Positions 9,252 through 32,307 of a stretch of DNA of 32,307 bases are shown here, one piece after another. The first letter of the stretch is position 1, and each line of letters opens with the position of its first letter. The notes beneath the pieces were generated by a model that did no database searches, was not told the DNA's origin, and was given only the letters and a program-made list of their open reading frames with translations. Made by a program: the position numbers and the translations under genes. Source of the stretch: Thermoplasmata archaeon (lineage in GTDB: Archaea > Thermoplasmatota > Thermoplasmata > RBG-16-68-12); the NCBI GenBank assembly GCA_035639595.1, contig DASQXV010000028.1:1-32307 (forward strand), in the 5' to 3' direction.

Positions 9252-11141
9252 TCACCTTTTTCCTTTTTTTCCTCCCTTCTCTTCGCCGCGGACGCGTGCC
9301 GCAAGCCGCTCCCGGAGGACGTCGCTCACGAGCTTCCCGTCCGCCCGACCGCGGACCTTCTCCATGACTCGGCCCATCAGCGCCTTCTCCGCGGATGCGC
9401 CACGGGCCACGACCGTCTCCGCGGACTCGTCCAATACGGAATCGACGATTGATACGAGTTCTTGGCGAGGCATTCCTGTGACGCCCAGGTTGGCCAGGGC
9501 ATCTGTCGCCCGGACGCCGCCACGGGCCATCTCCCTCAGGAGGTCGGGCACGGCCTCCTTCGCGAACCGTCCCGCCTTCAGGAGGGAGAACAGCTCGCGC
9601 AGGCGATCCAGCGGAATCCCATCGACGTCGAGGCCCTCCCGGCGCAATTCTCCGAAGGTGTAGAGGAGCACGGTCGCCACGAGTCGCGCCTCTCCGAATT
9701 CGCGGGCGATCATCTCGAAGACGTCGTCGACGCCTTCTTGGACGAGCTGCTGGGCTTGCTGACCGTGGATCCCGTACTCGTGCGCAATCCGTGCGATTGT
9801 GACCTCGGGCCGCTCCGGGAGGGATTCGCGGATCCTCTCCAACCGCTCCGACGTCACCCGGGTCGGCGGCACGTCCGTCTCAGGGTACATGCGCGCCCGG
9901 CCCGGGAGCGGACGGCTGTAGACGGTCGTCCCGTCGGGCCGCGGTTCGCGCGTTTCCGGCGGGACGCCTTGGATCGCCGCGGCCGCCCGCGGGATCATTT
10001 CCCCGAACGCGGCCCGGGCCCGGCCCTCCTCCTCGGCCACGAGGACGAATGCGTCTTGGTCTCCGAGCTTCAGCTCGCGGCGGACCGCGTCGACTTCCGC
10101 GGACGAGATGCCGTACGCGGGCAGTTCGTCGGAGTGGAAGATGCCTCCCACGCCCGCGATGCGCGCATGGGCGGCGAGTTCGGGCCCGATCTTCTCCTTC
10201 AGGAGGCCCGCGAACCCCGGGAGGACCGCGCCGAGGACGATCCCTCCCTTCTTCAGGGCGGAGCCCACGACCTTCGACTCCGTCCCGCGGAACAAGGAGG
10301 TCAGGTCCCGCGGTTCCGGATGGACCGCCCGAACGCCGCGGCGCCGCAGTTCGGCTGCGACCTCGAGGAGCATCCGCTGCCGCTCGACCTCCTTCTCGAC
10401 GAACGTCGCGATGAGCCGGAGTTCCTGTACCCCCTTGATCTCGATCCGCGCGCCCCCTTCGATGGAGACGTTCAGGTCCTCGCGGATTGTCCCGATCCCT
10501 CGCATCACCTTCCGCGTGGCGCGGAGGAGGGATCCGAAGGCGAGGGCGACGTCCCGCGCCTCCTCAGGGGTCTCGATGTTCGGCGTCGTCGCGATTTCGA
10601 CGAGCGGGATGCCCAGGCGGTCGAGGCGGTACACGACCTCGCCCTCCGCCTCCCCGAGCTTGCGGGCGGCGTCCTCCTCCAGGAGGAGGGTCGGCACCCC
10701 GATCCGCTTGCCTCCCACCTCGAGCCCGCCATCGAGGGCGACGAGGGCGGACCGCTGGAAGCCCGCGGTGTTCGACCCGTCGATCACGATCTTCCGCATG
10801 AAGTCGACCTCCGCGACGGGCTTCGCGCCCAGCAGGAGGGCGATTTCCAGGGCGATGTCGAGGGCCTCTGGGTTCGGCAGGTGGGGCGGCTCCTCGTCCG
10901 CTTCGACCAGACAGGAGTTCGGCGTGGCCTCGTATACGAAGGTGAGGTGGCGTTTCGCCTCCTCCACCGCGGCCGCGTCGATCTCGCCCAATTCGGACTG
11001 GGTCGGCCGTAAGCGGCGGCGGAACCGCGCGCCTCCGAAGGCGTCCACAAGGGCCGATGCGTCCGCGCAAAACAGCTTGTGCGTCGCGAGCTGCTGGTGG
11101 ATCTCCAGACCGACCTTCAGTCCGAGGGCGCGATAGTCCAT
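9252..11141 (-). CDS. gatE: Glutamyl-tRNA(Gln) amidotransferase subunit E
   Basis: 629 aa beginning MDYRALGLKVGLEIHQQL. It is collinear over its whole length with archaeal GatE (GatB-like core with insertion domain and C-terminal tail). Confidence 0.95.
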   Translation of the reverse strand: MDYRALGLKVGLEIHQQLATHKLFCADASALVDAFGGARFRRRLRPTQSELGEIDAAAVEEAKRHLTFVYEATPNSCLVEADEEPPHLPNPEALDIALEIALLLGAKPVAEVDFMRKIVIDGSNTAGFQRSALVALDGGLEVGGKRIGVPTLLLEEDAARKLGEAEGEVVYRLDRLGIPLVEIATTPNIETPEEARDVALAFGSLLRATRKVMRGIGTIREDLNVSIEGGARIEIKGVQELRLIATFVEKEVERQRMLLEVAAELRRRGVRAVHPEPRDLTSLFRGTESKVVGSALKKGGIVLGAVLPGFAGLLKEKIGPELAAHARIAGVGGIFHSDELPAYGISSAEVDAVRRELKLGDQDAFVLVAEEEGRARAAFGEMIPRAAAAIQGVPPETREPRPDGTTVYSRPLPGRARMYPETDVPPTRVTSERLERIRESLPERPEVTIARIAHEYGIHGQQAQQLVQEGVDDVFEMIAREFGEARLVATVLLYTFGELRREGLDVDGIPLDRLRELFSLLKAGRFAKEAVPDLLREMARGGVRATDALANLGVTGMPRQELVSIVDSVLDESAETVVARGASAEKALMGRVMEKVRGRADGKLVSDVLRERLAARVRGEEKGGKKGKR

Positions 11142-11168: not shown

Positions 11169-11612
11169 TTAAGCCTTTTCCGCCGCAGGGACGCCGGCCT
11201 TCCGGAGCGTTTCCTCGAGTTCCGCGATCTTGTTCTCCGCGGTCTCGAGCTCCGCCTCGAGCAGGTCGATCCGCGCCGCCGACTCCTTGAGCTCCGACCA
11301 GAGGATGTGGTACCGGCGGCTCGCGCGGTACTCCCGCAGCGGCTCGGGGTCCGTGGGCTCCGGCTCCCCGTCCGTCGCGAGGATGTTCTTGACGTAGAAC
11401 TCCTTGTCGAGCTCCGGCATCGCCGCGATCCGGAGCAGGAGCTGGTTCGGGTACTCCGGCTTCAGGGCCGACGCCGCACGCAGGGCCATCATCACGGCGT
11501 ACTCGCCGCAGCAGTTGAAGTCGCGGGTCGGCGCATGGTTCTCCCCATGCGTCTGCCGGTGCGTCTGAGCGAGCATGTCCCAGATGCGGTTGTACTCGTC
11601 CTCGGCGGACAT
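11169..11612 (-). CDS. Hypothetical protein with C-terminal coiled-coil segment, directly upstream of gatE
   Basis: ATG at 11612, 147 aa. The C-terminus WSELKESAARIDLLEAELETAENKIAELEETLRKAG is heptad-like. Only 27 nt separate its stop from the gatE start, so co-transcription is likely. Confidence 0.6.
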   Translation of the reverse strand: MSAEDEYNRIWDMLAQTHRQTHGENHAPTRDFNCCGEYAVMMALRAASALKPEYPNQLLLRIAAMPELDKEFYVKNILATDGEPEPTDPEPLREYRASRRYHILWSELKESAARIDLLEAELETAENKIAELEETLRKAGVPAAEKA

Positions 11613-11714: not shown

Positions 11715-12056
11715 ATGGGCTGGTTCTTCGACTTCGCGAAACGCCGGATCGTCGGGTACATCCTCTTCTGGACCCTCGTCCTCCTGTTCATCGGGATCTT
11801 CTACCAGGGGAACCCGCCCGCCCAGGCCGGCGGGCTGCTCATCCTCGGCCTCGCCTTCCTCGGCTCCCTCCTGTACACCCGGCGGATGAAGCGGCGGCAG
11901 CGCGCGAAGCGGGAGGCCGAGGAGCGGATGAAGCAGTGGCAGGAGTGGCAGCGGGCCCAACAGGCCCAGTATGCGCAGCGGCTGCAGCAGTGGCAGGCGC
12001 AGCAGGCCCAGCAAGCCCAGACGGTGCTCCAGCAGCGATCGAAGGGCGGCCGCTAG
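11715..12056 (+). CDS. Small two-TM membrane protein with basic, Q/W-rich C-terminal tail
   Basis: ATG at 11715. TM segments IVGYILFWTLVLLFIGIFY and GGLLILGLAFLGSLLY are followed by RRMKRRQRAKREAEERMKQWQEWQRAQQAQYAQRLQQWQAQQAQQAQ. Confidence 0.6.
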   Translation: MGWFFDFAKRRIVGYILFWTLVLLFIGIFYQGNPPAQAGGLLILGLAFLGSLLYTRRMKRRQRAKREAEERMKQWQEWQRAQQAQYAQRLQQWQAQQAQQAQTVLQQRSKGGR

Positions 12057-12526
12057 CGGCTCGGTCCCCGGTCCGATTCCCGATAAGGGGATTTCAGGGT
12101 GCCTTCCTCGCGCTTGACCCGCTGCTCCTTTTCGTGCTTGAGCCACGCGAGCAGCCGGGATGCGGCCCCGAACGGACGGAACTCGAACACGACCTTCCCG
12201 TGGTCCGCGTCCGTCGCGTGGACGAGGACCCGCTTCCGCTTGTGGACGACGTCGATTGCCTCTTCGAACGGAATCTCGTGATAGCGCTTGCCCTTCTTCC
12301 CACCCGGCAGGTCGAGCCAATCCGAATCCAGGAGGAGGAGCCGACGCCGCGTCTGCCACGCCCATCCCTTCCGTTGGCCGACCAAGGTCTTCTTGGCGAG
12401 GGCGACGGAGCGGTAAACCTCGTACCGTAGCTCGCGGTATCCGATGATCTGGTCCCCCCCGGAAAGGACGGGCTCGTTCGCCTCCGTGAGGACGACCCCG
12501 ACCTCCCCGACCTCGTCGATTTTCAT
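12053..12526 (-). CDS. Hypothetical protein immediately downstream of gatD
   Basis: The ATG at 12526 is 9 nt after the gatD stop, so an operon is likely. 157 aa with mixed beta/alpha-type composition and a basic tail. No family recognised. Its stop overlaps the convergent 11715..12056 gene by 4 nt. Confidence 0.6.
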   Translation of the reverse strand: MKIDEVGEVGVVLTEANEPVLSGGDQIIGYRELRYEVYRSVALAKKTLVGQRKGWAWQTRRRLLLLDSDWLDLPGGKKGKRYHEIPFEEAIDVVHKRKRVLVHATDADHGKVVFEFRPFGAASRLLAWLKHEKEQRVKREEGTLKSPYRESDRGPSR

Positions 12527-12535
12527 CCCCCGACC

Positions 12536-13840
12536 TCATTCCGCGAACTCGTCGAGGCCGATCCGGGGGTTGATCTCGCCGGCGACGTTGGCCAGCATCG
12601 CCCGGGCGACCTCCTTGGGTTCGCGGGTGTGGCCGAGGACCCACATCAGCTTCACGAGGGCGGTCTCCGGCGTCATGTCCTCCCCCTCGATGACCCCGGC
12701 CTTCAGCAGGTCGCGGCCCGTGTCGTAGACGCGCAAGCTGACGCGCCCCTGCAGCGTCTGCGTCGTCATGACGACCGCGACGCCGTCCCGGATCGCCTTC
12801 TGGAGGATCGGGATCAGGTCGTGGGCCACGTGCCCGAGCCCGGTCCCCGCGATCACGAGCCCGTGGACGCCGCGAAGGATCGCCTCGAGCTCCCCCGTAG
12901 GCTGACCGGGGTAGAAGTACGTCAGGCCGACCTTCGGGTCCAGGGCGTCATCGACCTTCGTCGGCCCCGGGGCCCGCGGGAGGGCGCGGTCGGACAGCTC
13001 CACGCGGCCGTCCGCGAGGACTCGGCCGAGGGGGGTCGCGTTCAGGGAGCGGAACGCGTCCCGCCGCGACGAATGCATCTTCCGGACCTTCGTCCCGCGA
13101 TGGACCGTGGCATACGTGTCACCGGTCTCGCCGTGCATCACGGCGACGACCTCGCCCAGGTTCGCGACCCCGACGTGGGCGGCGGCGACCAGGTTCAGGG
13201 CCGCGTCGGAGGAGGGGCGGTCGCTCGACCTCTGGGCGCCCACCACGGCGACAGGCCCGGTCAGGTCTCGGAGCATGAAGGAGAGGGCGGCCGTCGTGAA
13301 GTGGAGGGTGTCCGTCCCGTGCGGGATGATGACGCCCGACGCCCCGCCGTTCAGCTCCTTCGTGGCCTCGCGGGCGAGGTGCTGCCAGTTCTCCGGCTTC
13401 AGGTCTTCGCTGTAGACGCTGTAGATGACCCGCGCGCGGACGTTCCCGATCTCGAGGAGCTCGGGGACGCTGAGGACGAGTTCGTCCGCGGTCACGGCGG
13501 GATGGACGGCCCCGGTCCGGTAGTCCACGTAGGACGCGATCGTCCCTCCCGTGCCGAGGACGGCGAGGGTCGTCTTGCCCTTCGCAGGGGCCGGGGGCGT
13601 CCGCCGGACCGAAGGCGGTGCCCGCTTCCCGATGACCTCGATCGAATCGATCTCCCGGATCTCGATGCCGACGTTGTACCCGTTGGGTAGCTTGACGGTC
13701 AGCATGTCCTCGCCGCTGAAGCCGTGGTGGGGCATGAGGACGCCCTCGTAACGTCCCGCCTTCGCGTGGACCACGACGGAGTCGCCCTCGTCCGCCTTCG
13801 CGCGGTCCAGGAGGGCCCGCACCCGCGGCGGGTATTCCAT
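12536..13840 (-). CDS. gatD: Glutamyl-tRNA(Gln) amidotransferase subunit D
   Basis: 434 aa with a GatD-type N-terminal domain (MEYPPRVRALL...GVLMPH...) followed by an asparaginase-like domain carrying the LGTGGTIAS and HGTDT motifs. Confidence 0.95.
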   Translation of the reverse strand: MEYPPRVRALLDRAKADEGDSVVVHAKAGRYEGVLMPHHGFSGEDMLTVKLPNGYNVGIEIREIDSIEVIGKRAPPSVRRTPPAPAKGKTTLAVLGTGGTIASYVDYRTGAVHPAVTADELVLSVPELLEIGNVRARVIYSVYSEDLKPENWQHLAREATKELNGGASGVIIPHGTDTLHFTTAALSFMLRDLTGPVAVVGAQRSSDRPSSDAALNLVAAAHVGVANLGEVVAVMHGETGDTYATVHRGTKVRKMHSSRRDAFRSLNATPLGRVLADGRVELSDRALPRAPGPTKVDDALDPKVGLTYFYPGQPTGELEAILRGVHGLVIAGTGLGHVAHDLIPILQKAIRDGVAVVMTTQTLQGRVSLRVYDTGRDLLKAGVIEGEDMTPETALVKLMWVLGHTREPKEVARAMLANVAGEINPRIGLDEFAE

Positions 13841-20345: not shown

Positions 20346-20861
20346 ATGCCGGGGCCGTCTCTCGTCGCGGGCGACGGTCCGTCGATGGTCGACGTGGGAC
20401 AAAAGGCGCCGGATTTTACCATGCTGAGCGACGAGGCCAAGCCCGTGACGTTGTCGAAGGAATTGGGGCAAGGCCCCGTGATTCTGTCCTTCTACGTGTT
20501 CGACTTCACGCCGACGTGCCAGGGCCAACTGTGCTCGTTGCGGGATTCCCTGGGCGACCTTCAGGCGATCGGTGCGAAAGTGTTCGGGATTAGCACGGAC
20601 AGTCACCACAGCCACCGGATCTTCAAGGAGCAGAACCGGATCAACTACCCCCTGCTGAGCGACTGGAACCGGACGGTCAGCAAGGCCTTCGGCGTCCAGT
20701 ACGACCGGTTCGGGACCTTCGGGCTCCAGGGCGTCGCGAAACGGTCCGTCTTCGTCCTCGATCGGACCGGCGTCGTGCGGTACAAGTGGGTCACGGAGGA
20801 CCCGAAGGTGCCGCCGGACCACGCGAAGGTCCTCGAGGAAGTCAAGAAGTGGGCCCGCTGA
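20346..20861 (+). CDS. Peroxiredoxin, Bcp/PrxQ type
   Basis: VGQKAPDFTM...VILSFYVFDFTPTCQGQLCSL places the peroxidatic Cys in a T-P-x-C context, with a second Cys in CxxxxC spacing. The ATG at 20346 has GGAG 13 nt upstream. The alternative ATG at 20385 gives the more typical N-terminus MVDVGQKAPDF. Confidence 0.85.
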   Translation: MPGPSLVAGDGPSMVDVGQKAPDFTMLSDEAKPVTLSKELGQGPVILSFYVFDFTPTCQGQLCSLRDSLGDLQAIGAKVFGISTDSHHSHRIFKEQNRINYPLLSDWNRTVSKAFGVQYDRFGTFGLQGVAKRSVFVLDRTGVVRYKWVTEDPKVPPDHAKVLEEVKKWAR

Positions 20862-22056
20862 TTCCGAGGGACCGGAGGGCCTCGTCGGCGCCGCGGACGA
20901 CCGGCGCCGTCACCGGACCGCCCGATCCGCGGGCCGTTCCCGTGTTCACGAGGACCACCCGGTCGTCCCCGGTGATGACGCCGTCGTCGAAGAGTCGTCG
21001 GAGTCCGGCCAGGGTCGCGGCTCCCTCGAGGCACGCGCTGATCCCTTCGAAGGTCGCGAGGTTCTGGGCGGAGACGCGCATCGCGTCCTCCGATACCGCG
21101 ACGGCGGCCCCGCGGGTCTCCCGGATCGCTGCAAGGACGATGCGGTCGGCGAGGGTCGATGGCACCCGGAGGCCGGCCGCCTCCGTGCGGGGATCGGGCC
21201 ACGGCTCGGCGCGGTCCCTCCCCTCCTTCCACGCCTTCACGAGCGGCGCGCAACCCTCCGCTTGCACGACCGCGAAGCGGGGCCATGGGCCATCGTACCA
21301 TCCGAGGTCCCGCAGCTCGTGGAGGGCCTTCCACATCCCCGCGATCCCGGTCCCGCCTCCGGTCGGGAAGAGGATCCAGTCCGGGAGACCTGCCAGCGCC
21401 TCCCAGATTTCGAGGAGCATGGTCTTCTTCCCCTCGACGCGGTAGGGCTCCCGCAGGGTCGCGAGATTGAAGGCACCCGTCAAGCGGGCGAGCTCCCCCG
21501 CGATGCGTCCGGCCTGCACGATGTCCCCGTCCACCCGGAGGAGGCGAGCGCCGAAGTCGATCGCCTCGCGGGCCGCGTCCTCGGAGCCGTCCCGAGCGAG
21601 GAGGACCGTCGAGCCCAAGCCGTACGCGGCGGCATACGCCGCGAACGCCGCCCCCGCGTTCCCCGCGGTGGGGACGACGAGGTCGTACGCCCCGAGGGCC
21701 TGGGCCATGGGGACCGCGACGGCCATCCCGCGGGCCTTGAAGGTCCCCGTCGGATTGCGTCCTTCGTCCTTGACATACAGGGCCGCGAGCTTCATGCGGG
21801 CGACGCGTCCTCCGGAACCGAGACGGGTGAGGCGAATCAGGGGCGTCCCGCCCTCGCCCCGGGAGCGGATCTTCGATTCGTCGAGGGGCAGCAGCGGCGC
21901 GTATCGCCACAGGTCGCCCCGCCGGAGCAGGCGATCCTTCGTCAATCCGTCCCAATCGTATCGGGCGAACAGAGGGCCGCCGCAGTCGCAGGTGTTGATC
22001 AGCTGGACCGCGTGGTGTTTCGAACACGCGGTGCATTCGAGGAACACGGGACGCAC
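20842..22056 (-). CDS. thrC: Threonine synthase-like PLP-dependent enzyme
   Basis: N-terminal Cys-rich ribbon (LECTACSKHH...CDCGGPLFARYD), WRYAPLLPL...EGGTPL, and the PLP-lysine motif NPTGTFKARG. Track ORF 20842..22797 was trimmed because its 5' part is antisense to larE. The start is the GTG at 22056 or at 22047. The 3' end overlaps the convergent peroxiredoxin gene by 20 nt. Confidence 0.8.
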   Translation of the reverse strand: MRPVFLECTACSKHHAVQLINTCDCGGPLFARYDWDGLTKDRLLRRGDLWRYAPLLPLDESKIRSRGEGGTPLIRLTRLGSGGRVARMKLAALYVKDEGRNPTGTFKARGMAVAVPMAQALGAYDLVVPTAGNAGAAFAAYAAAYGLGSTVLLARDGSEDAAREAIDFGARLLRVDGDIVQAGRIAGELARLTGAFNLATLREPYRVEGKKTMLLEIWEALAGLPDWILFPTGGGTGIAGMWKALHELRDLGWYDGPWPRFAVVQAEGCAPLVKAWKEGRDRAEPWPDPRTEAAGLRVPSTLADRIVLAAIRETRGAAVAVSEDAMRVSAQNLATFEGISACLEGAATLAGLRRLFDDGVITGDDRVVLVNTGTARGSGGPVTAPVVRGADEALRSLGISGPTS

Positions 22057-22100
22057 GGGCTCGGCATGGAGCGGGGGCGGATACGGTTTGGCCCTCGATG

Positions 22101-22109
22101 CCTTTATCG
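22101..22109 (+). promoter_or_regulatory. TATA-like box CCTTTATCG in the 78-nt thrC/larE divergent spacer
   Basis: It is centred 29.5 nt upstream of the larE-like ATG at 22135 (leaderless geometry) and about 49 nt from the thrC-like GTG at 22056. Confidence 0.45.
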
Positions 22110-22134
22110 TCCCGACGCGTCTTCGTTGCGTTGC

Positions 22135-22959
22135 ATGGGAACCGGCGCCTCCGCACTCGACCTTCGACGCGCCTATGACGGCATGGTCGACGCGATGCGC
22201 TCGCGGGAGAGGGTGCTCGTCGCCTTCTCCGGCGGCGTGGACAGCGGCCTGGTCGCCCGCGTCGCCCACGATGCCCTCGGGGACCGCGCGCTGGCGGTCC
22301 TCGCGGATGCCGAATCCCTCTCGCGGCGGGAGTTGGACGAAGCGACCTCCGAGGCCGCGGAGATCGGGATCCGCCTGCAGACGGTCGCGGTGTCCGAGCT
22401 CGCGAACCCCACGTATGTCGCGAACCCGACGAACCGATGCTACTTCTGCCGGACGGAATTGGGCGCGGCCTTGAAGCCGATCGCCGCGGAGACGGGCGCG
22501 CGCGCGATCGCGGACGGCGTGAACCTCTCCGACCTGGGCGACCACCGGCCGGGGATCCAGGCGATGAACGAGGCGGGGTTCTGGCATCCCTTGGTCGAGT
22601 TCGGGTTCCGGAAGGAGGACGTGCGGGCCCTCGCTCGGGAGCTGGGCCTCAGCTTCCATGCGAAGCCGAGCAACGCCTGCCTGTCCTCGCGGATCGCGTA
22701 CGGGGAGGTGATCACGGTGGAAAAGCTGCGACGCGTGGAGGCCGCGGAGGACGCTGTCCGCAGCCTCGGGTTCCCGGTCGTCCGGGTCCGGGCTCACGAG
22801 GGCGTCGCGCGGATCGAGGTCCCGAAGGCGGACCTCGCGCGCCTGGTCGAGCCCGGGATGGCCGCGAAGGTCGCGGAGGCCGTCCGCGCCGCGGGGTTCG
22901 TGTACGTCACGGTCGACCTGCTCGGCTACCGCAGCGGCTCGATGAACGAGGGCCTGTGA
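22135..22959 (+). CDS. larE: LarE-like PP-loop ATP-dependent sulfur transferase (TIGR00268-type)
   Basis: In-frame ATG at 22135 within track ORF 21262..22959. SGGVDS PP-loop at aa 32-37. Cys102/Cys105 (NRCYFCRTEL) and Cys182 (PSNACLSSRIAYGE). 274 aa. Confidence 0.75.
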   Translation: MGTGASALDLRRAYDGMVDAMRSRERVLVAFSGGVDSGLVARVAHDALGDRALAVLADAESLSRRELDEATSEAAEIGIRLQTVAVSELANPTYVANPTNRCYFCRTELGAALKPIAAETGARAIADGVNLSDLGDHRPGIQAMNEAGFWHPLVEFGFRKEDVRALARELGLSFHAKPSNACLSSRIAYGEVITVEKLRRVEAAEDAVRSLGFPVVRVRAHEGVARIEVPKADLARLVEPGMAAKVAEAVRAAGFVYVTVDLLGYRSGSMNEGL

Positions 22960-25833: not shown

Positions 25834-28800
25834 TCAGGGGGCGACGCCGAGCTGTGCGGCGAGGGCCCGCAGCTCCGCCTCCTTGTCGCGGAGTTTCTGC
25901 TCCCGGTCCAGGAGCTCCATCGCCTTCTTCTGGATGATCTTCACGCGGTTCTCGACGTCCTTCTTCCATTCTTCCATCGCGGCGGACGAGGGCCCGCTCC
26001 CTTTGTCGATCTCGGTGAGCCGCGCCCGGAGCCGGTCTACCTCGGCCTGGAGTCGGCCCGCCCGGGTCTCCAGCTCCAATCGGTCCGCCTCGATCGCGCG
26101 CTCCTTCCCTTCGAGGATCTCCGCCCGCGTGTCGAGCGCCCGCTCCTCGTGTTCGACCGCGGCCTCCCGCTCCCGGAGCTTCTCCTCCTTGTCCAGGACG
26201 TCGAGCGCCTTCTTCTGGAGGAACCGGAGGTTCTTCGAGACCTCCGCCTGCATCCCTTCCGCTTGGACGCGCAGCTTCTCCGCGTCGCCCCTCGACGCGC
26301 CGGCTGCCCGCAGCTCCTCCTCGGCCCGGGCCCGCTGCGCCTCGATTTCCTGACGGGCCTTCTCGAGGCCCCTCAAGCCTTCCGCGAGCTGGCCTTCCCG
26401 ACCCGCGAGCGAGGACTCGCGGCGCCCGAGCTCCGATTCGAGGGACCGCACCTTCTCCTCGCGGGCCATGAGATCCCGTTCCTTCTTCGTCAGGTCCTCC
26501 ATCAGGTTGTCCGCCCGTTGGAGTTCCGTCGTCATCATGTGCTCCTTCTGAGCAGCCTCCGCGAGCTTCGCGTCCAGGATCGAGCTTCGCGTCTCGAGGT
26601 CCTTCTGACGGGCCGCGAGCTGCTGGCCGAGGGTGGCGAGCCGGGTCGTCTCGAGGTCGATCGTCCCCTTGCGGGTCCTCAGTTCCGTGGCCGCCGCGGT
26701 CGCCTGCTTCTCCGAGTCCACGAGTTTCGCGGACCGGACCTCCAGGTCCCGCGTCGCACTCGCGATCTCCGCTTCCTTGGCCGCCAACTTCTGCGATGCT
26801 TCCTGGAGGCGCGCGAGCGTCGCCTGAGCCTCGCGTTCCGACTTGTCCACTTCGGACCTCCGTCGCTCCAGCTGGGTGAGTTGGTTCGCGGCGTCGGCGA
26901 CCTGTCGCTTCGCCGCCTTCTCTGCCTCGTCGGCGACGAGGGCCCGCCGCTGGGATTCCGCGATGATCCGCTCCGTCTGCTGGGCCTGCGCCGCGGTCGC
27001 GTCCCGGGTCGCCTCGAGCTGTTTCAGCTCCTCCGATCGCTTCACGGCCCAGGTCGACCTTTCCGACTCGAACGCCTGCCGCGCCCTGAGGAGGTCCGCC
27101 TCCATCGTCTTCAACTCGGCAAGGCGACCTTCGGAGCGGCTCCAGGCCGCTTCGGCCTCCGAAGCCTTCGCGCTCGCAGCCTTCGCCTGTGCTTCGAGCT
27201 TCGAGCGTTCGAGCTGGAGCTGGGTCGTCGCGGCCCGCAACGACCGTTCCCGCGCCTCGACGTCCTCGAGGCGCTGCGCGAGCTCCGCCGACCGGGATTC
27301 CACGGTCGCGGTGATCTGCCGCTTCTCGTTGCGGAACGCGGCTTGGAGGGCCTCCAACTGCTGGCGCTTCTCCCGTTCCTCGGCCTCGAACTTCTTGACC
27401 GTCTCGTCGAACTGGGAGGCCCGGGTGTTCAGGTCCCCCTCTCGGCGGACGAGACCCATCGCCTGGGCCGCCAACTCCGTCGTCCGGGACTCCGCCTGCC
27501 GTTCCTTCGACTCGAGTTCTCGAATCCGCGCGTCCACCTCTTCTTCTTCGGCCCGGAGCTCCGCCTCCCGCGCGGCCAAGGCCTTCTCTCGGATCGCCAT
27601 CTCCTTCGCCTTCGCCCCGAGGGTGTCCTGGAGCACGGTCGAGTCGCGCTCGATCCGTTCCCGCTCCGCCCGGACCTCCGCCTCGCGGGCGGCGAGGGAT
27701 TGCCGCATCGCCTCGGTCTCCGTCCGGACGCGGGCGGACTCCGCCTCGTACCGGTCCCTCAGTTGCTCGAGCTCGAGCTGCTGCGCCTCCAGCTGCTTCC
27801 CCGTCTCCTGGACCGTGGCGCGCTCGTGCTCCAACCGAGCGGCCTCGGACCGCAACGCTTCCTCCGTCGTGGCGATCTTCCCTTCGCGGTCCGTGAGTTC
27901 ACGGGCCTTCTCGTCCAAGCGCTGGGACATCTTCTGGAGGTTCAGGTCGGCCTCGTGAATCCGTTCCGTCTGGGCGATCCGGTCCCGCTCGAATTCCATC
28001 CGCTTCGCATTGAGGTCCGCCTCGAGCGCGTTCAGCGTGTTCGTCCGCTTCGTGAGCTCGACCGCGTGGCGGGCGGCGTCCTCTCGGAGGGCGCGTTCCC
28101 GGGAACCGACCTCCATGGCTTCCTGTTCCACCTCTTGCTTCAGCCGCTCCCCCTCCGCCTTCAACTGAGCCGCCTGTCGGGAGGCCTCTTGGACCGCGGC
28201 CTCACGGCGGGTCAGCTCCTCCTTGTTCTGGGCGACCCACTCCAGGTCGGCCCGGACCTTCTCCTCCTGCTCCGCAGCCTTGGCCTCGCGGCGCTCGACG
28301 CGCATGACCCGATCCGACCACGAATCGCGGGCGGCCGCGGCCTCTTGTTCAAACGTTTCCTTCTGTTCCTTGAGCAGGGCCTGCTGGGATTCGAGGGTCG
28401 CCTGCCACGTCCGGAGTTCCTCCGCCCGCCGCGTCTCCTCCTCGCGGAGTCGCGCGGCCTTGCCATCGAGTTCCTTCGCGAGGGTCGCGAGTTCCTCCTT
28501 GCGGGCGCCTAAATCGGCGCGCTCCTTGTCCAACCGAGCGCCCTCGATTTCGACGGACTCCTCGCGGCCGGCGAGTTCCGCGATCCGTCGGGAATTGTCC
28601 TCGGCCTGGGACCGGACGGACTCCTCCTTTTCCAGGAGGGACTGTTCGCGGGCCTCGACCTCGATCTCCTTCGCGAGGATCGCCTGGTTCTTCTCGTTCC
28701 TCGACCGCTCGAACGTATCCCGGTCCGACGCGAGCCGCAACTGCTGTTCTCCAATCTCCTTGGCCTGGCCCGCGAGGTCCTCTTGGCGGCGCCGGAGTTC

Positions 28801-31800
28801 CTCTTCGTAATGGGCCGTGCGATCCTGGAATTCGTTCCGATCGGATTCGAAGGAGGCGCGGGCCTCCTCGATGACCACGCGGTCCTCCGATAGGGCGACC
28901 TCGCGGGCTTCGAGTTCCCGGAATCGGGACGCCAGCTCCGCCAACTGTGCGTCCGCGTCGGACTTTTCGTCCCGCGCCCTTGCTTCGGCCGCTTTCGCCG
29001 CGGCCTCTCGGCCGGCGAGCTCGGCCTCGAACGGCGCGAGGCGTCCCTCCCTCGCCACGAGTTCCTGAGCTTTCGCCGCCGCGTCCGCCTCGGCCTTCTC
29101 GACCTCGGCGACCCGCGCGTCCACGGATTGCTTGAATTCGAGGAGATCCCTCTGTTCCGTTTCGAAACGCTGACGGGCCGCGGCGAGCTCCTCGTTCCCG
29201 GTTCGGATCTGAGCCTCCCGCGCCTCGGCCGCTTCGATCCGCCCCTGGATTGCGGCGGCCTCGGAGGCCAGGCGGTCCTTCTCCGCCGCGAGGCGCTCCT
29301 CCTCCCGCGCGATCCCCCCCTTCCGCTCGTCCAACGCGGCCTCCGCGGACACCACCGCCGACTCCCGCGCCGCGAGGGACTCCGCCTTCGCAGCGAGCCT
29401 GGCCTCTTCCTCCCGAGCCTGCGCCTCGCGCGAATCGAAGCCCGCGCGCGTCGCTTCCACCTCGCGGGCCAGGACGTCCATCGCCTGCCGCTCTTCCAGG
29501 AGTCGGGACTCTCGGAGCTTGACGTCCGAGTCCGCGGCCGCGATCGCGGTCTGGTCAGCCTCGATCTTCGTCCGGACCCGATCGATCTCTTCCTGCGTCG
29601 CGCGGAGTTCGCCCGCGCGAGCCTCGAGCTCGGCCCGCTTCTGTTCCAGCTCGCGCGCCCTCGCATCGAGCTCGCCCTCCCGGGTGCGGGCCTCCGCCAG
29701 GCGCTCTTTCACCGCATCCGCGAACTTGTCCTGGACCTGGACGAGCATCTCCCGTGCGAACTCGACCTGCTCCAACGTCACCGGCCCGTACGCGAGGAGG
29801 ACGACCGCCATGGCGTCGCCACGGACGGTCTGGCCGCGGTACTTCTCGACCTTGACGGGTTTCTCGACCGCGTCCAAGACGCCCGCCTGGACCGCTTGAT
29901 CGTAGGTCACGCGGCACGACGGATCCAGGGTGAATTCCCTGAGCATTCGATTCTTCTCGTCCACGAGGAAGGCCTTCGCGGGCCTCCAGCGCGCGCGTTG
30001 CACCAGCATGGCAATCACCACAAAGACTCCGATCGGCGGGACCGCGAAGTACGAGGCCTGCCACCACGGCGAAACGAGGATCGCCCGCGCGGGACGGGAG
30101 GCCGTCGCGGCGCCGTCGGAAATCGTGACCGTGAAATCGGCCTGCGGGCGATCGCTCGGGAGGGCGATCGTCAGCGTGTGGCCGCTCACCGAGACGTACG
30201 GGCTGTCCGTCGTCACGGTGATCGAGGAGAGGGGCGTGTCGATGTCGCTGATGTACGGGGTCAGGTCGAAGGAAGCCGAGGTCCCGGGGTCGAGTCGGAA
30301 CTCGGGGAGTGGGGCCAGGATCGGCGCGTCGTTCACGGGCCGCACGAGGACCACGAGGGGCGCTTCGACGAACGCGCCCGTCGGGTCGGTCGCCCGCACC
30401 CGCAAAGTCTCCGACCCCGACCAGTTCGCGGCCGCCCACAGGTCGACCGTCCCGTCCCCGTTGATTCGGAAGGCGACGTCCTGGGCTCCCAGGATGGAGA
30501 AGGTCAGCGGCTCCCCGTCGGCGTCGGAGAAGTGGGCCGTCACGTTGCCCGCGAGCGCGTTGAGGTCGATCGTGTCCTCGTCAAATGCGACGGAGGAGAA
30601 GGGAGCCGTGACGACGGGCGGATACGCGGACACCACGCGCACCGCCGCGGTCCCGGAAAAGGCGCCGGAGCTCGCCTGCACCGCGCCGGACGCGGGAGGC
30701 GCGCGGGCGCTGAACGTCACGGCGCTCCCCGAGGACGCGTTCAACGTGCCGACGCCTCCGAGGACCGACCAGGTGAAGCTCACGCCTCCAACCATGTTGT
30801 CCCAGGCGTCGAAGCCTTGCGCCGCGAAGGCCTGCGTGTCGAGGGCCCGGAGGCTCACGTTGCTCGGCGAGACCGCGATCCGCGCGAGGGGTCCCGGAGA
30901 GACGAGGACGGATCCGCTGAGCCCGCTCGCGGCGAGGTACGTCGCACGCAGACGGATCGTCTCCGCCTTCGTGTACGTCTGGGTCGTGAGGGTCGCGGTC
31001 CCTCCCGCGGAAATCGCCATCGTCGTCGTCCCGAGCGTGCCGCCTCCGGGCGTGACCCCGTCCGCGAGGCGAGCCGTCAGGGCCACGACGCCGGTCCAAC
31101 CGGTCATCGTGAAATTCCCGGCGTCCTTCGCCGCCACGGTGACGGTGAAGGGACTCCCTGCGGTCGCAGCGGGCGAAACGGCCACGTAGAAGTGGTCGAG
31201 ATTGTGCAGGAAGGTAAGCCGAATCTCGGTCAGGGTGGGAGAGACGAGGGGATCGGTCGTCGTCAGCGAGGCTCGGAAGCGAATCCGGCCGGAGGTCGTC
31301 GGCACGCCCGCGAGATTGGCGGGCGGCGAGACGGCGCTCCAGGTGGCCCCGGAGTCCAGGGAGTACTCGTACGCGATCGACTGCCCATTCGCCGCCTGGA
31401 CCACGGTCAGGTTCCCCCATCCCGCGAGATCCGAGGGGACGAGATCGTTCGTCGTCAGCGTCCCCGCGGACAGGTAGCGGGACCACGACAGGTTGACGTC
31501 GCCCACGACGGGCGTGTGGTCCGGGAGCACGACCCCAAGCTCGAGCCGGAACTCGATGTACCCGGAGGCGGCGCCGATGGCCGAGCCGGTCGATGACGCG
31601 TACGGGACAGACCATCCGCTCCAGGTCCCATCGACGGGGCTGACGTTGCCCGTCCGGGTGCGGACCGTCACCGTCGTATCGGGATCGTGGGCGACTCGAA
31701 CGTAGTCGACGTCCGTCGCGAGGGCGGTCCCGGACAATCCGTCCGCGGTGTAAAGGGCCAGCCGGACCTGCAGCGGGTATTCGAGGGCCGGGACGTAGGT

Positions 31801-32307
31801 GTCCTGCAGCGTCCAGGACGTCCCGTCCGAGCTCGTCGACGAGGTGAAGGTGTTCCCGGCCCGTTGGATCCGGACCCAGGCCGGGTTTGGGTTCCCGCTG
31901 TTCATGTCGACACGGGTGGTGGTCACGGCGTCGACCGTCGACCGAATCCTCCAGTTCACCGTGCCCGTCCCGAGCACGTATTGCTTTCCAACGTTGTACC
32001 AGTCGCGGGGACCGAGGAGGGCCATCAAGCCGGCCTTCTGCCCGTTCAAGGTGGGACTCGTGGTGAATTTCATCGTCGCGGTGAAGTTGCCGACGACCTC
32101 GTTCGCCAGCACGTTGCCTGTGAAGGTCGGACCGATGAGGTCGCACGCGGTGCACGAGACCACATGCAGGTGACCCGGCGTCGTCGTCCCGACATCGTAC
32201 GTGGCCGGCGGATTCGTCCAGGTCCACTTCGGATCGAGGGACGCCCCGTTGAACTCATCGGTGATCAGGGAACGGTCAGTCCGGTTCCAGGAGATCGTCC
32301 CCCAATT
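25834..32307 (-). CDS. Giant single-pass membrane protein (partial, N-terminus off the window): lectin/Ig/cadherin-like ectodomain, TM helix, alpha/beta module, ~1,290-aa coiled coil
   Basis: Stop codon at 25834..25836. The track starts the ORF at a GTG at 32163. My translation of 32164..32307 in the same frame is stop-free and domain-continuous (NWGTISWNRTDRSLITDEFNGASLDPKWTWTNPPATYDVGTTTPGHLH-VVSCTAC...). At least 2,157 codons are visible. Confidence 0.85.
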   Translation of the reverse strand, partial: NWGTISWNRTDRSLITDEFNGASLDPKWTWTNPPATYDVGTTTPGHLHVVSCTACDLIGPTFTGNVLANEVVGNFTATMKFTTSPTLNGQKAGLMALLGPRDWYNVGKQYVLGTGTVNWRIRSTVDAVTTTRVDMNSGNPNPAWVRIQRAGNTFTSSTSSDGTSWTLQDTYVPALEYPLQVRLALYTADGLSGTALATDVDYVRVAHDPDTTVTVRTRTGNVSPVDGTWSGWSVPYASSTGSAIGAASGYIEFRLELGVVLPDHTPVVGDVNLSWSRYLSAGTLTTNDLVPSDLAGWGNLTVVQAANGQSIAYEYSLDSGATWSAVSPPANLAGVPTTSGRIRFRASLTTTDPLVSPTLTEIRLTFLHNLDHFYVAVSPAATAGSPFTVTVAAKDAGNFTMTGWTGVVALTARLADGVTPGGGTLGTTTMAISAGGTATLTTQTYTKAETIRLRATYLAASGLSGSVLVSPGPLARIAVSPSNVSLRALDTQAFAAQGFDAWDNMVGGVSFTWSVLGGVGTLNASSGSAVTFSARAPPASGAVQASSGAFSGTAAVRVVSAYPPVVTAPFSSVAFDEDTIDLNALAGNVTAHFSDADGEPLTFSILGAQDVAFRINGDGTVDLWAAANWSGSETLRVRATDPTGAFVEAPLVVLVRPVNDAPILAPLPEFRLDPGTSASFDLTPYISDIDTPLSSITVTTDSPYVSVSGHTLTIALPSDRPQADFTVTISDGAATASRPARAILVSPWWQASYFAVPPIGVFVVIAMLVQRARWRPAKAFLVDEKNRMLREFTLDPSCRVTYDQAVQAGVLDAVEKPVKVEKYRGQTVRGDAMAVVLLAYGPVTLEQVEFAREMLVQVQDKFADAVKERLAEARTREGELDARARELEQKRAELEARAGELRATQEEIDRVRTKIEADQTAIAAADSDVKLRESRLLEERQAMDVLAREVEATRAGFDSREAQAREEEARLAAKAESLAARESAVVSAEAALDERKGGIAREEERLAAEKDRLASEAAAIQGRIEAAEAREAQIRTGNEELAAARQRFETEQRDLLEFKQSVDARVAEVEKAEADAAAKAQELVAREGRLAPFEAELAGREAAAKAAEARARDEKSDADAQLAELASRFRELEAREVALSEDRVVIEEARASFESDRNEFQDRTAHYEEELRRRQEDLAGQAKEIGEQQLRLASDRDTFERSRNEKNQAILAKEIEVEAREQSLLEKEESVRSQAEDNSRRIAELAGREESVEIEGARLDKERADLGARKEELATLAKELDGKAARLREEETRRAEELRTWQATLESQQALLKEQKETFEQEAAAARDSWSDRVMRVERREAKAAEQEEKVRADLEWVAQNKEELTRREAAVQEASRQAAQLKAEGERLKQEVEQEAMEVGSRERALREDAARHAVELTKRTNTLNALEADLNAKRMEFERDRIAQTERIHEADLNLQKMSQRLDEKARELTDREGKIATTEEALRSEAARLEHERATVQETGKQLEAQQLELEQLRDRYEAESARVRTETEAMRQSLAAREAEVRAERERIERDSTVLQDTLGAKAKEMAIREKALAAREAELRAEEEEVDARIRELESKERQAESRTTELAAQAMGLVRREGDLNTRASQFDETVKKFEAEEREKRQQLEALQAAFRNEKRQITATVESRSAELAQRLEDVEARERSLRAATTQLQLERSKLEAQAKAASAKASEAEAAWSRSEGRLAELKTMEADLLRARQAFESERSTWAVKRSEELKQLEATRDATAAQAQQTERIIAESQRRALVADEAEKAAKRQVADAANQLTQLERRRSEVDKSEREAQATLARLQEASQKLAAKEAEIASATRDLEVRSAKLVDSEKQATAAATELRTRKGTIDLETTRLATLGQQLAARQKDLETRSSILDAKLAEAAQKEHMMTTELQRADNLMEDLTKKERDLMAREEKVRSLESELGRRESSLAGREGQLAEGLRGLEKARQEIEAQRARAEEELRAAGASRGDAEKLRVQAEGMQAEVSKNLRFLQKKALDVLDKEEKLREREAAVEHEERALDTRAEILEGKERAIEADRLELETRAGRLQAEVDRLRARLTEIDKGSGPSSAAMEEWKKDVENRVKIIQKKAMELLDREQKLRDKEAELRALAAQLGVAP
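25837..29720 (-). other. Coiled-coil rod region of the giant protein
   Basis: About 1,290 residues dominated by E/A/R/L/K/Q/D, with more than 20 copies of (A/G/R)-R-E-x-x-hydrophobic. The few G/P interruptions include KGG at ORF aa 948-950, P1044, GASRGD at 1955-1960 and KGSGPSS at 2054-2060. Confidence 0.75.
30001..30054 (-). other. Single transmembrane helix of the giant protein
   Basis: SYFAVPPIGVFVVIAMLV is flanked by PWWQA on the N-terminal side and QRARWRPAK on the C-terminal side. By the positive-inside rule the C-terminal part is cytoplasmic. Confidence 0.7.
30064..32307 (-). other. Predicted extracellular region of the giant protein
   Basis: ConA/LamG-like module (FNGASLDPKWTW...QKAGLMALL...WVRIQRAGNTFTSSTSSDGTSWT, nt ~31690..32307). 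Two further beta modules ending in IEFRLEL and IRFRASL. An Ig-like module (FTVTVAAKDAGNFTMTGWTGVV). A Big_2-like module (IAVSPSNVSLRALDTQAFAAQGFDAWDN). Two cadherin-like modules, the first ending in VNDAP. Confidence 0.65.

Follow-up and report, generated by a model that had tools for sequence, protein, structure and literature searches.

A giant membrane protein from Thermoplasmata with a long cytoplasmic coiled-coil rod, and the gene cluster of its family

Contig DASQXV010000028.1 of the Thermoplasmata archaeon assembly GCA_035639595.1, whose whole stretch of 32,307 nucleotides we call the window, ends inside a giant open reading frame (ORF) on the minus strand (25834..32307). Its product, here named L, joins an adhesin-type part outside the cell to a very long coiled coil inside it, which raises the question of what a membrane-anchored surface protein does with such a cytoplasmic rod. 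In relatives, L is encoded beside two smaller paralogs, S and M. We give about an even chance to the reading that L, M, and S form a scaffold or tether beneath the membrane, made of parallel dimeric membrane-anchored rods and coupled to a variable surface domain. This reading builds on the architecture and topology of L, its coiled coil, the fold of a module at the membrane, the paralogs and their gene cluster, and the conserved length of the cytoplasmic region.

The giant frame and its membrane topology

Translation yields 2,157 sense codons and then a TGA stop (25834-25836), with no internal stop, in a frame that stays open up to the window edge. The guanine-plus-cytosine (GC) content at the three codon positions (0.70/0.48/0.88) is like that of the other credible genes of this window, in which GC is ~67% overall. 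Translation and codon-position GC thus both bear out the uninterrupted minus-strand frame claimed in a preliminary description of this DNA; the ORF list begins L only at an internal GTG (32163), which is a listing convention. The same description had read the protein, from N to C terminus, as an ectodomain, one transmembrane (TM) helix, the stretch QRARWRPAK, an alpha/beta module, and a coil of ~1,290 residues, and Pfam matches, hydropathy, and composition agree with that order.

The TM helix (amino acids [aa] 751-769; 30001..30057, minus strand like all features of L given below; ASYFAVPPIGVFVVIAMLV) has a 19-residue Kyte-Doolittle maximum of 2.16. It is the sole segment of L above 1.5 on this scale and is kept in all orthologs. 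The basic stop-transfer sequence QRARWRPAK (aa 770-778) follows straight after it. In the window protein there are 10 N-x-S/T sequons before the helix and 0 in the cytoplasmic part, and in orthologs the sequon density is 1.3-2.9 per 100 aa on the N-terminal side of the helix versus 0-0.3 on the C-terminal side. Signal peptides are visible in the orthologs only, the window protein being truncated at its N terminus. Because of these signal peptides, the sequon asymmetry, and the positive cluster past the helix, the N terminus is predicted to lie outside the cell and the C terminus inside, in keeping with the type-I topology first proposed. A hydropathy scan of the whole protein found no hydrophobic segment at the C terminus, which agrees with the earlier view that L has no C-terminal anchor, its only TM helix lying N-terminal to the coil.

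How much of L lies beyond the window can be estimated from its orthologs. Residue 1 of the window protein aligns with about aa 311-321 of orthologs of ectodomain type A (described below) that bear signal peptides, and therefore ~315 N-terminal residues are missing and the full length would be ~2,470 aa. The missing N terminus and the S and M genes were inferred from orthologs whose L cytoplasmic region is 41-65% identical to that of the window. Attempts to extend the contig gave little: no JGI metagenome contained an exact 50-mer taken from the end of the window, an exact-sequence look-up of the neighboring pyridoxal phosphate (PLP) enzyme returned no record, and the exact sequence of the window ferredoxin was found on a single 1.1-kb Logan contig only.

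The extracellular part (aa 1-750; 30058..32307) is glycoprotein-like. It contains a concanavalin A (ConA)-like beta-sandwich of the lectin/glucanase type (aa 16-169; 31801..32262), matched by PF17851 GH43_C2 (2.9e-10) and PF07081 DUF1349 (1.7e-08), and an immunoglobulin (Ig)-like/cadherin-like module (aa 564-650; 30358..30618), matched by PF17963 Big_9 (7.9e-07) and PF17892 Cadherin_5 (2.2e-06). The NF012211 tandem-95 repeat model also matches the latter module at 1e-12, below the family cut-off. Across the family, at least two unrelated ectodomain types are exchanged on the same cytoplasmic chassis. Type A, which includes the window protein, combines a CBM96/disaggregatase repeat with ConA-like and Big_9/cadherin-like domains; type B is ~3,000 aa long and has no Pfam match. 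The window ectodomain is ~60% identical to those of loci L017, L019, L014, L004, and L021.

Two long ORFs on the plus strand, 26149-28512 (787 aa) and 29128-31596 (822 aa), face the giant gene. In the antisense frames examined opposite L, codon-position GC is inverted (GC2 > GC1), and these ORFs are therefore shadow frames of a GC-rich, purine-skewed coding strand and not genes. The AT skew of -0.23 to -0.41 over 26-30 kb arises from the same property of the coding strand.

The cytoplasmic module, rod, and end domain

Two parts of the cytoplasmic region are best conserved among orthologs, and they lie at its two ends. The first is the juxtamembrane module (aa 770-873; 29689..30000), made up of the stop-transfer sequence and a folded domain, with a column identity of 0.84-0.86. 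A first AlphaFold2 model of the TM helix and module, built from a shallow alignment of 7 sequences, had a predicted local distance difference test score (pLDDT) of 41 and was unusable; it was replaced by one built from 27 diverse aligned sequences, with a pLDDT of 90 and a predicted TM-score of 0.78. This model is an alpha/beta sandwich in which a five-stranded antiparallel sheet packs on helices, in the order beta-beta-alpha-beta-beta-beta-alpha (strands 6-13 and 19-24, helix 33-38, strands 49-51/54-60 and 65-71, helix 76-103). The last helix is long and is predicted to run straight into the coiled coil.

Among the top 50 PDB matches returned by Foldseek for this model, most were longin/roadblock-type structures, with probabilities of 0.9-1.0 and TM-scores of 0.4-0.6. 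These included the mu and sigma subunits of AP-2/3/4, zeta-COP, MglB, an Asgard Roadblock protein, the C-terminal domains of Rag proteins, LAMTOR, SRX, and sedlin. The module is thus predicted to have a longin/roadblock-type fold, an assignment made at the level of fold and not of family membership. A search of its profile against PDB sequences gave no relevant match, and the module has no sequence family in Pfam, NCBIfam, or PDB. The ~90-aa alpha/beta module of the preliminary description is therefore present, at ~100 aa, while its longin/roadblock-type fold had been overlooked. Domains of this kind usually form homo- or heterodimers at membranes. Most serve as regulators of small Ras-like GTPases, as GTPase-activating proteins (GAPs) or guanine nucleotide exchange factors (GEFs), or as docking sites for them, and some are plain dimerization platforms.

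A stand-alone S-like protein of 136 aa, consisting of the module without a coil, is encoded at 10001-10411 of locus L027 (Logan ERR11413747_209), with no M or L within 10 kb. In a more divergent lineage, the module thus occurs by itself as a separate single-domain protein.

Beyond the module lies the heptad coiled-coil rod (aa 868-2007; 26287..29706). From about aa 868 to the C terminus, 62-76% of residues are E/A/R/L/K/Q, and there are 3 prolines in ~1,290 residues. Such a composition could by itself mimic a coil, and the claim that the tail is a true coiled coil is sustained by four further lines of evidence. (i) The strongest peak in the hydrophobicity Fourier spectrum of the cytoplasmic tail falls at 3.51 residues, and the windowed a/d score is 0.43, versus 0.24 +/- 0.008 in shuffled sequence. 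(ii) BLOSUM autocorrelation peaks at lags of 7, 14, 21, 28, and 35, with z values of up to 9.6. (iii) In the ortholog alignment, heptad positions a, d, e, and g are conserved at 0.63-0.65 versus 0.51-0.55 for b, c, and f, and the difference in conservation between a/d and all other positions has a p value of 2e-4. (iv) Internal indels are few, and two of the three are whole heptads, as described next.

When the 1,384-aa cytoplasmic region is aligned across the 12 closer orthologs, which are 47-65% identical overall (most ~57%), only three internal indels appear: one of 7 residues (aa 2007) and two at aa 1108, which measure 105 residues in one lineage and 18 in a second. The 7- and 105-residue indels are whole numbers of heptads. 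Among the 80 loci scored, cytoplasmic length was 1,391 aa in 41, 1,384 aa in 14, and 1,496 aa (that is, 1,391 + 105) in 4. The lowest column identity of the cytoplasmic region, 0.35-0.42, is found in the quarter of the rod nearest the membrane. The 105-residue indel lies in the N-terminal half of the rod and the 7-residue indel near the C terminus, and neither is compensated elsewhere; a parallel in-register arrangement is therefore favored over an SMC-like fold-back. We infer that the rod pairs in parallel and in register, since the indel pattern fits such pairing better than folding back.

The central rod (27028..28713) shows a super-repeat of ~120 aa, or 17 heptads. Autocorrelation peaks at lags of 120, 233/240, and 353, and the motif (R/K)xxFExER recurs at aa 1199, 1319, 1439, 1520, 1640, and 1746 (spacings of 120/120/81/120/106), with more copies at 1048 and 1153. 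To judge from these repeats, the rod evidently arose by tandem duplication. Spectrin-like three-helix repeats were considered as the basis of the ~120-aa period and not adopted, as Gly and Pro are too sparse and irregular to supply a loop every ~35 aa. Register shifts are frequent, with 24 register segments of at least 21 aa. Given these shifts and the super-repeat, the rod need not be a single straight coil, and the length of 190 nm that the preliminary description reckoned for a continuous coil is an upper bound.

The second well-conserved part is a helical end domain at the C terminus (aa 2008-2157; 25837..26286), recognized by alignment and by a hidden Markov model (HMM), with a column identity of 0.72-0.79. 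The end-domain HMM matches the window protein at 4.8e-51, its sole matching position in the window, and the module HMM matches the window protein at 5.7e-48. The end domain is common to L, the M paralog, and the distant family members P0058 and P0064 (413-454 aa). It is built from one motif used twice, FLQKKALDVLDKEEKLRERE and IIQKKAMELLDREQKLRDKE, with a helix and a Gly/Pro linker between the copies. In motif 1 (aa 2026-2048; 26164..26232; NLRFLQKKALDVLDKEEKLRERE), the residues F, L, and Q are invariant over L, the M paralogs, and the distant members. Motif 2 (aa 2121-2143; 25879..25947; RVKIIQKKAMELLDREQKLRDKE) is preceded by the Gly/Pro linker KGSGPSS, and its residues R, K, I, Q, K, A, L, R, E, K, L, and R are invariant over all aligned sequences. 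The end domain has no Pfam or PDB match. A bZIP-like or MIM-like reading of its motifs was considered and was supported by no search.

One giant ortholog, that of L017 (CAYGBO010000020.1, a metagenome-assembled genome [MAG] labeled Methanomassiliicoccales), loses the conserved end domain, at ~12.3-12.7 kb. Its final 150 residues are rich in Arg, Ser, and Pro, include X codons from unreadable bases, and look as if read out of frame, with a 626-aa ORF overlapping this region in another frame. Its short cytoplasmic length (871 aa) is probably an artifact of a frameshift or an assembly gap.

Relatives, the S-M-L cluster, and its surroundings

The stretch from the TM helix through the juxtamembrane module served as the handle in the search for relatives. 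A word-index protein search returned only short metagenomic fragments (56-82% identity) with no informative source name, and full-length relatives were obtained from contig scans. When 1.84 billion cluster representatives were searched exhaustively with an HMM, 41 proteins were recovered, of which ~39 are real and 2 spurious; the family is rare. The two rejected proteins, P0054 and P0056, are unrelated tandem-repeat proteins that match the module profile through repeated short stretches. One has eight repeats of ~64 aa with much Cys, His, and Tyr, the other six beta-helix-like repeats of ~144 aa.

A scan of GTDB species representatives gave 21 loci, one per genome, and the JGI metagenomes gave 80 more. 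Archaeal titles are carried by 20 of the 21 (Thermoplasmata, Methanobacteriota, Euryarchaeota, and Methanomassiliicoccales MAGs, some of them from the Angelo 'EA_' and SMAG sets); the remaining locus, L018, is a contig of 1.7 kb that had been binned as Candidatus Paceibacterota. Apart from this one short contig, the named records of the family are soil MAGs of Thermoplasmata-type archaea. Together with GatD and GatE, which the window carries among housekeeping genes, these titles support the archaeal origin that had been proposed from the window. Full-length L orthologs range from ~2,000 to ~4,500 aa.

In the relatives, S and M lie directly upstream of L on the same strand, in the order S-M-L. 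Among loci with sufficient upstream DNA, 35 of 41 have M and 27 of 33 have S. S (182-242 aa) is soluble, lacking a TM helix, and joins a module-like domain to a coil of ~80 aa. In M (463-480 aa), a hydrophobic segment at the N terminus (Kyte-Doolittle 1.67) is followed by the module, a coil of ~300 aa that carries one FExER motif, and the end domain. The S and M modules are homologous to that of L (hhalign probability 98.2%, E = 3e-14). A scan of the window with the module and end-domain profiles found no further paralog, and comparison of S, M, the module, and the end domain with Pfam, NCBIfam, and PDB gave subthreshold coiled-coil noise only (RNase_Y_N, Nup54, and Tropomyosin, for example).

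The distant members P0058 and P0064 are M-like, with a TM helix (Kyte-Doolittle 2.49), the module, a coil, and the end domain, but no ectodomain. The ancestral unit therefore looks like a membrane anchor followed by module, coil, and end domain. On this comparison, L looks like a derivative in which the rod was amplified and an exchangeable ectodomain added.

The preliminary description had called for a search for homologs and conserved neighbors, and both were found, the latter as the S-M-L cluster and as synteny around it. It had not remarked on the cluster, the conserved cytoplasmic length, the end domain, or the super-repeat, of which the latter two can be seen in the window itself. Downstream of the cluster, a PLP enzyme is present in 73 loci, a ferredoxin in 66, and FTR1 in 41; upstream genes include those for ADP-forming acetyl-CoA synthetase, an EamA transporter, a glyoxalase, and an ACT-domain protein. 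None of these neighbors, on either side, has an apparent functional link to L. The stability of the synteny places L in the core chromosome of these relatives and favors a core cellular function over a mobile element.

Several other features of these loci deserve mention. A tandem ACT-domain gene (124 aa) stands directly before S, on the same strand, in L003 (76-450), L025 (9495-9869), and L026. In the window, an 892-aa ORF (3215-5893, plus strand) encodes a NosD/right-handed beta-helix protein that also has two PKD domains and, at its C terminus, a zinc ribbon. This ORF, in the part of the window where GC is lowest (0.59-0.61 versus ~0.67 elsewhere), may represent a foreign insertion or another surface protein. 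L025 encodes a similar NosD/Big_5 protein (1,247 aa) near its S-M-L cluster. Two minus-strand ORFs with gene-like codon GC, 11169-11612 (147 aa) and 12053-12526 (157 aa), lie between GatE (9252-11141) and GatD (12536-13840). The 147-aa ORF ends in a coiled-coil-like stretch with a subthreshold match to Tropomyosin, and neither ORF matches the S/M/L module or end-domain profiles. Finally, in the 651-aa minus-strand frame at 20842-22797, the PALP domain (PLP-dependent, tryptophan synthase beta-like) covers only aa 312-620. The N-terminal extension of ~300 aa, which a 565-aa ORF overlaps on the opposite strand, is without a match in Pfam; the true start may lie elsewhere, or the frame may be a fusion.

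A proposed membrane scaffold and its alternatives

In the mechanism that we propose, L would be a type-I membrane glycoprotein displaying a lineage-variable domain of carbohydrate-binding or adhesin type outside the cell. The module directly under the membrane would probably dimerize, as such domains usually do, and the dimerized module would seed a parallel in-register rod of fixed length (~1,290 aa, no longer than ~190 nm). At the inner membrane face, the modules of S, M, and L may pair with one another, as roadblock/longin domains do in Ragulator-Rag or MglB dimers, and the shared end domains would join rods to each other, to the modules, or to a common cytoplasmic partner. The outcome would be a membrane-attached scaffold of defined spacings, mechanically continuous with the surface-binding ectodomain, that acts as a membrane skeleton or tether. 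Cytoskeletal element, tether, and outside-in coupler, the roles put forward in the preliminary description, are candidate functions. More tentatively, S-M-L might constitute a previously unknown archaeal membrane skeleton or tether whose rods are linked by the end domain into a lattice or ruler; rods in such a lattice would measure up to ~190 nm for L and, at the same rise per residue, ~45 nm for M.

By analogy, L would most resemble, in its working, the long coiled-coil membrane tethers or the intermediate-filament-like membrane skeletons. The intermediate-filament-like and coiled-coil-rich cytoskeletal proteins (lamins, crescentin, Scy/FilP, and Mycoplasma HMW2) have heptad rods of conserved length with long-range super-repeats; like L, they vary by indels of whole heptads, and for them too a role in membrane support has been proposed, notably in wall-less cells. 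However, they are soluble or peripheral, and the type-I layout with a large ectodomain is seen in none of them. Nor is there a sequence relationship: the Mycoplasma helix-rich model TIGR04523 scores L at only 21 bits, below threshold. With the SUN-KASH/nesprin bridge known as the linker of nucleoskeleton and cytoskeleton (LINC) complex, L shares the concept of a membrane-spanning link from an outside-facing domain to a long cytoplasmic rod, but that complex is a eukaryotic two-protein bridge over two membranes with spectrin-repeat rods, and the likeness is one of analogy only. The Roadblock/LC7 and longin proteins provide the best structural matches to the predicted module, and the three paralogous module copies in S, M, and L recall the stacked roadblock pairs of Ragulator-Rag. 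In contrast to those proteins, L has its module fused between a TM helix and a giant coil, with no sequence-family match.

Some observations weigh against the scaffold as we propose it. The many register shifts permit a segmented or folded rod. The Foldseek E values for the module are weak (0.03-0.2), and the 27 diverse module sequences gave no Robl_LC7 or longin Pfam match at E <= 10. S and M are known from relatives, the window ending inside L, and 6 of the 41 loci have no detectable M upstream, some of them probably because of frameshifted assemblies or broken frames. In the loci inspected, no gene for a GTPase, an ATPase, or a filament protein lies beside the cluster. The host lineage is also uncultured.

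An explanation that we regard as unlikely, although still worth weighing, is that L serves as a GTPase-linked tether or polarity platform. Here the module would be a regulator (GAP or GEF) of, or a dock for, a small Ras-like GTPase encoded elsewhere, and the rod would work as a tether of the golgin/EEA1 type that holds the nucleoid, vesicles, or the machinery of division or motility at a defined distance from the membrane. The fold matches lend this idea some weight, as they are dominated by GTPase-interacting proteins (MglB, Rag C-terminal domains with LAMTOR, AP sigma and mu with Arf1, and SRX), and a rod whose length is fixed and whose distal end domain is conserved has the layout of a tether. 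Golgins such as giantin likewise have a cytoplasmic rod of more than 1,000 aa, a single TM anchor, and a conserved binding region at the far end. But golgins are tail-anchored by a C-terminal TM segment, lack an ectodomain, occur in eukaryotes, and bind Rab/Arl GTPases or are recruited by them, and they show no homology to L. Moreover, no GTPase gene occurs in or beside the cluster at any locus inspected, the module has no sequence similarity to Robl_LC7 or longin models, the catalytic and interface residues of MglB-type GAPs cannot be mapped onto it, and roadblock/longin folds serve also as dimerization platforms pure and simple.

It is also rather improbable that L is chiefly an envelope or surface-layer (S-layer) protein, or an adhesin for soil polymers or other cells, with the coil as merely a bulky device for anchoring or oligomerization. 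The huge, sequon-rich ectodomains of Ig, ConA, and CBM96 type, which differ among lineages, would suit such a role, as would the single locus per genome in the 21 genome matches. Yet it is the cytoplasmic part that is conserved and locked in length, whereas the ectodomain is replaceable. M, S, and the distant members, which have no ectodomain, keep the module and coil, and M and the distant members keep the end domain as well. This cytoplasmic conservation and the existence of ectodomain-free paralogs therefore point to a conserved function inside the cell. The archaeal S-layer stalks tetrabrachion and SlaB are, like L, envelope glycoproteins in which Ig-like or beta-sandwich domains are combined with a coiled coil and an anchor in the membrane. 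In those proteins, however, the coil is extracellular and the anchor C-terminal, whereas the coil of L lies in the cytoplasm, past the TM helix. With the sole TM helix upstream of the coil, and the coil free of sequons and past the positive cluster, the earlier judgment that L is not a tetrabrachion-like stalk stands.

There is a slim chance that L folds back in the manner of SMC, Rad50, or MukB, so that the end domain meets the juxtamembrane module in a composite head at the membrane. The two best-conserved parts are indeed the two ends of the cytoplasmic region, and very long coiled coils are a feature that L shares with SMC, Rad50, and ASRP. Weak coil-level matches to SMC and to archaea-specific SMC-related NCBIfam models were also found, all within aa 846-1192: SMC_prok_B at 41 bits (cut-off 567), SMC_prok_A at 35 (729), and ASRP at 27 (300). 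These scores are far below the cut-offs, the Pfam scan found no ATPase or hinge domain in L, and the preliminary verdict of no ATPase heads and no SMC/Rad50 likeness agrees with such sub-cut-off, coil-only matches. Unlike these proteins, L lacks a Walker A/B head and a hinge and is anchored in the membrane. Neither the 105- nor the 7-aa indel is matched by a compensating change in an opposite arm, which speaks indirectly against an antiparallel fold-back, and M and L have the same ends on coils that differ ~4-fold in length.

The last alternative, an artifact of assembly or annotation in the form of a surface-protein gene chimerically joined to a coiled-coil gene or a low-complexity nongene frame, might be suspected of a repeat-bearing metagenomic contig from a GC-rich host with many spurious ORFs, but it is effectively refuted by the identical collinear architecture of ~100 loci assembled independently in several projects, and the conserved ectodomain-TM-module junction, the gene-like codon-position GC, and conservation that tracks the heptad positions likewise speak against it.

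The building blocks of L are all of known kinds, namely, an Ig/ConA ectodomain, a TM helix, a longin/roadblock fold, and a heptad rod. The novelty lies in joining them within one type-I chain whose cytoplasmic rod spans ~1,290 aa, and in the S-M-L trio. No description of the family was found in the literature searched, nor was a characterized family of this architecture found in Pfam, NCBIfam, or PDB sequences, as the preliminary description had supposed.

The known structural systems of archaea are few beyond tubulin and actin homologs, ESCRT, and S-layers, and some Thermoplasmata have no cell wall. S-M-L is a concrete candidate for membrane support, or for surface-to-interior coupling, in this group. 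The longin/roadblock fold figures centrally in discussions of how eukaryotic trafficking arose, and its predicted presence in the module widens the known archaeal contexts of the fold, here outside the Asgard archaea. In addition, three new sequence profiles (module, end domain, and S/M module) make it possible to annotate proteins that are at present called hypothetical. If the scaffold reading is true, S-M-L would be a prokaryotic analog of spectrin or the lamina, or of outside-in coupling of the LINC type, and it would achieve this coupling with a type of domain otherwise known from GTPase and trafficking platforms.

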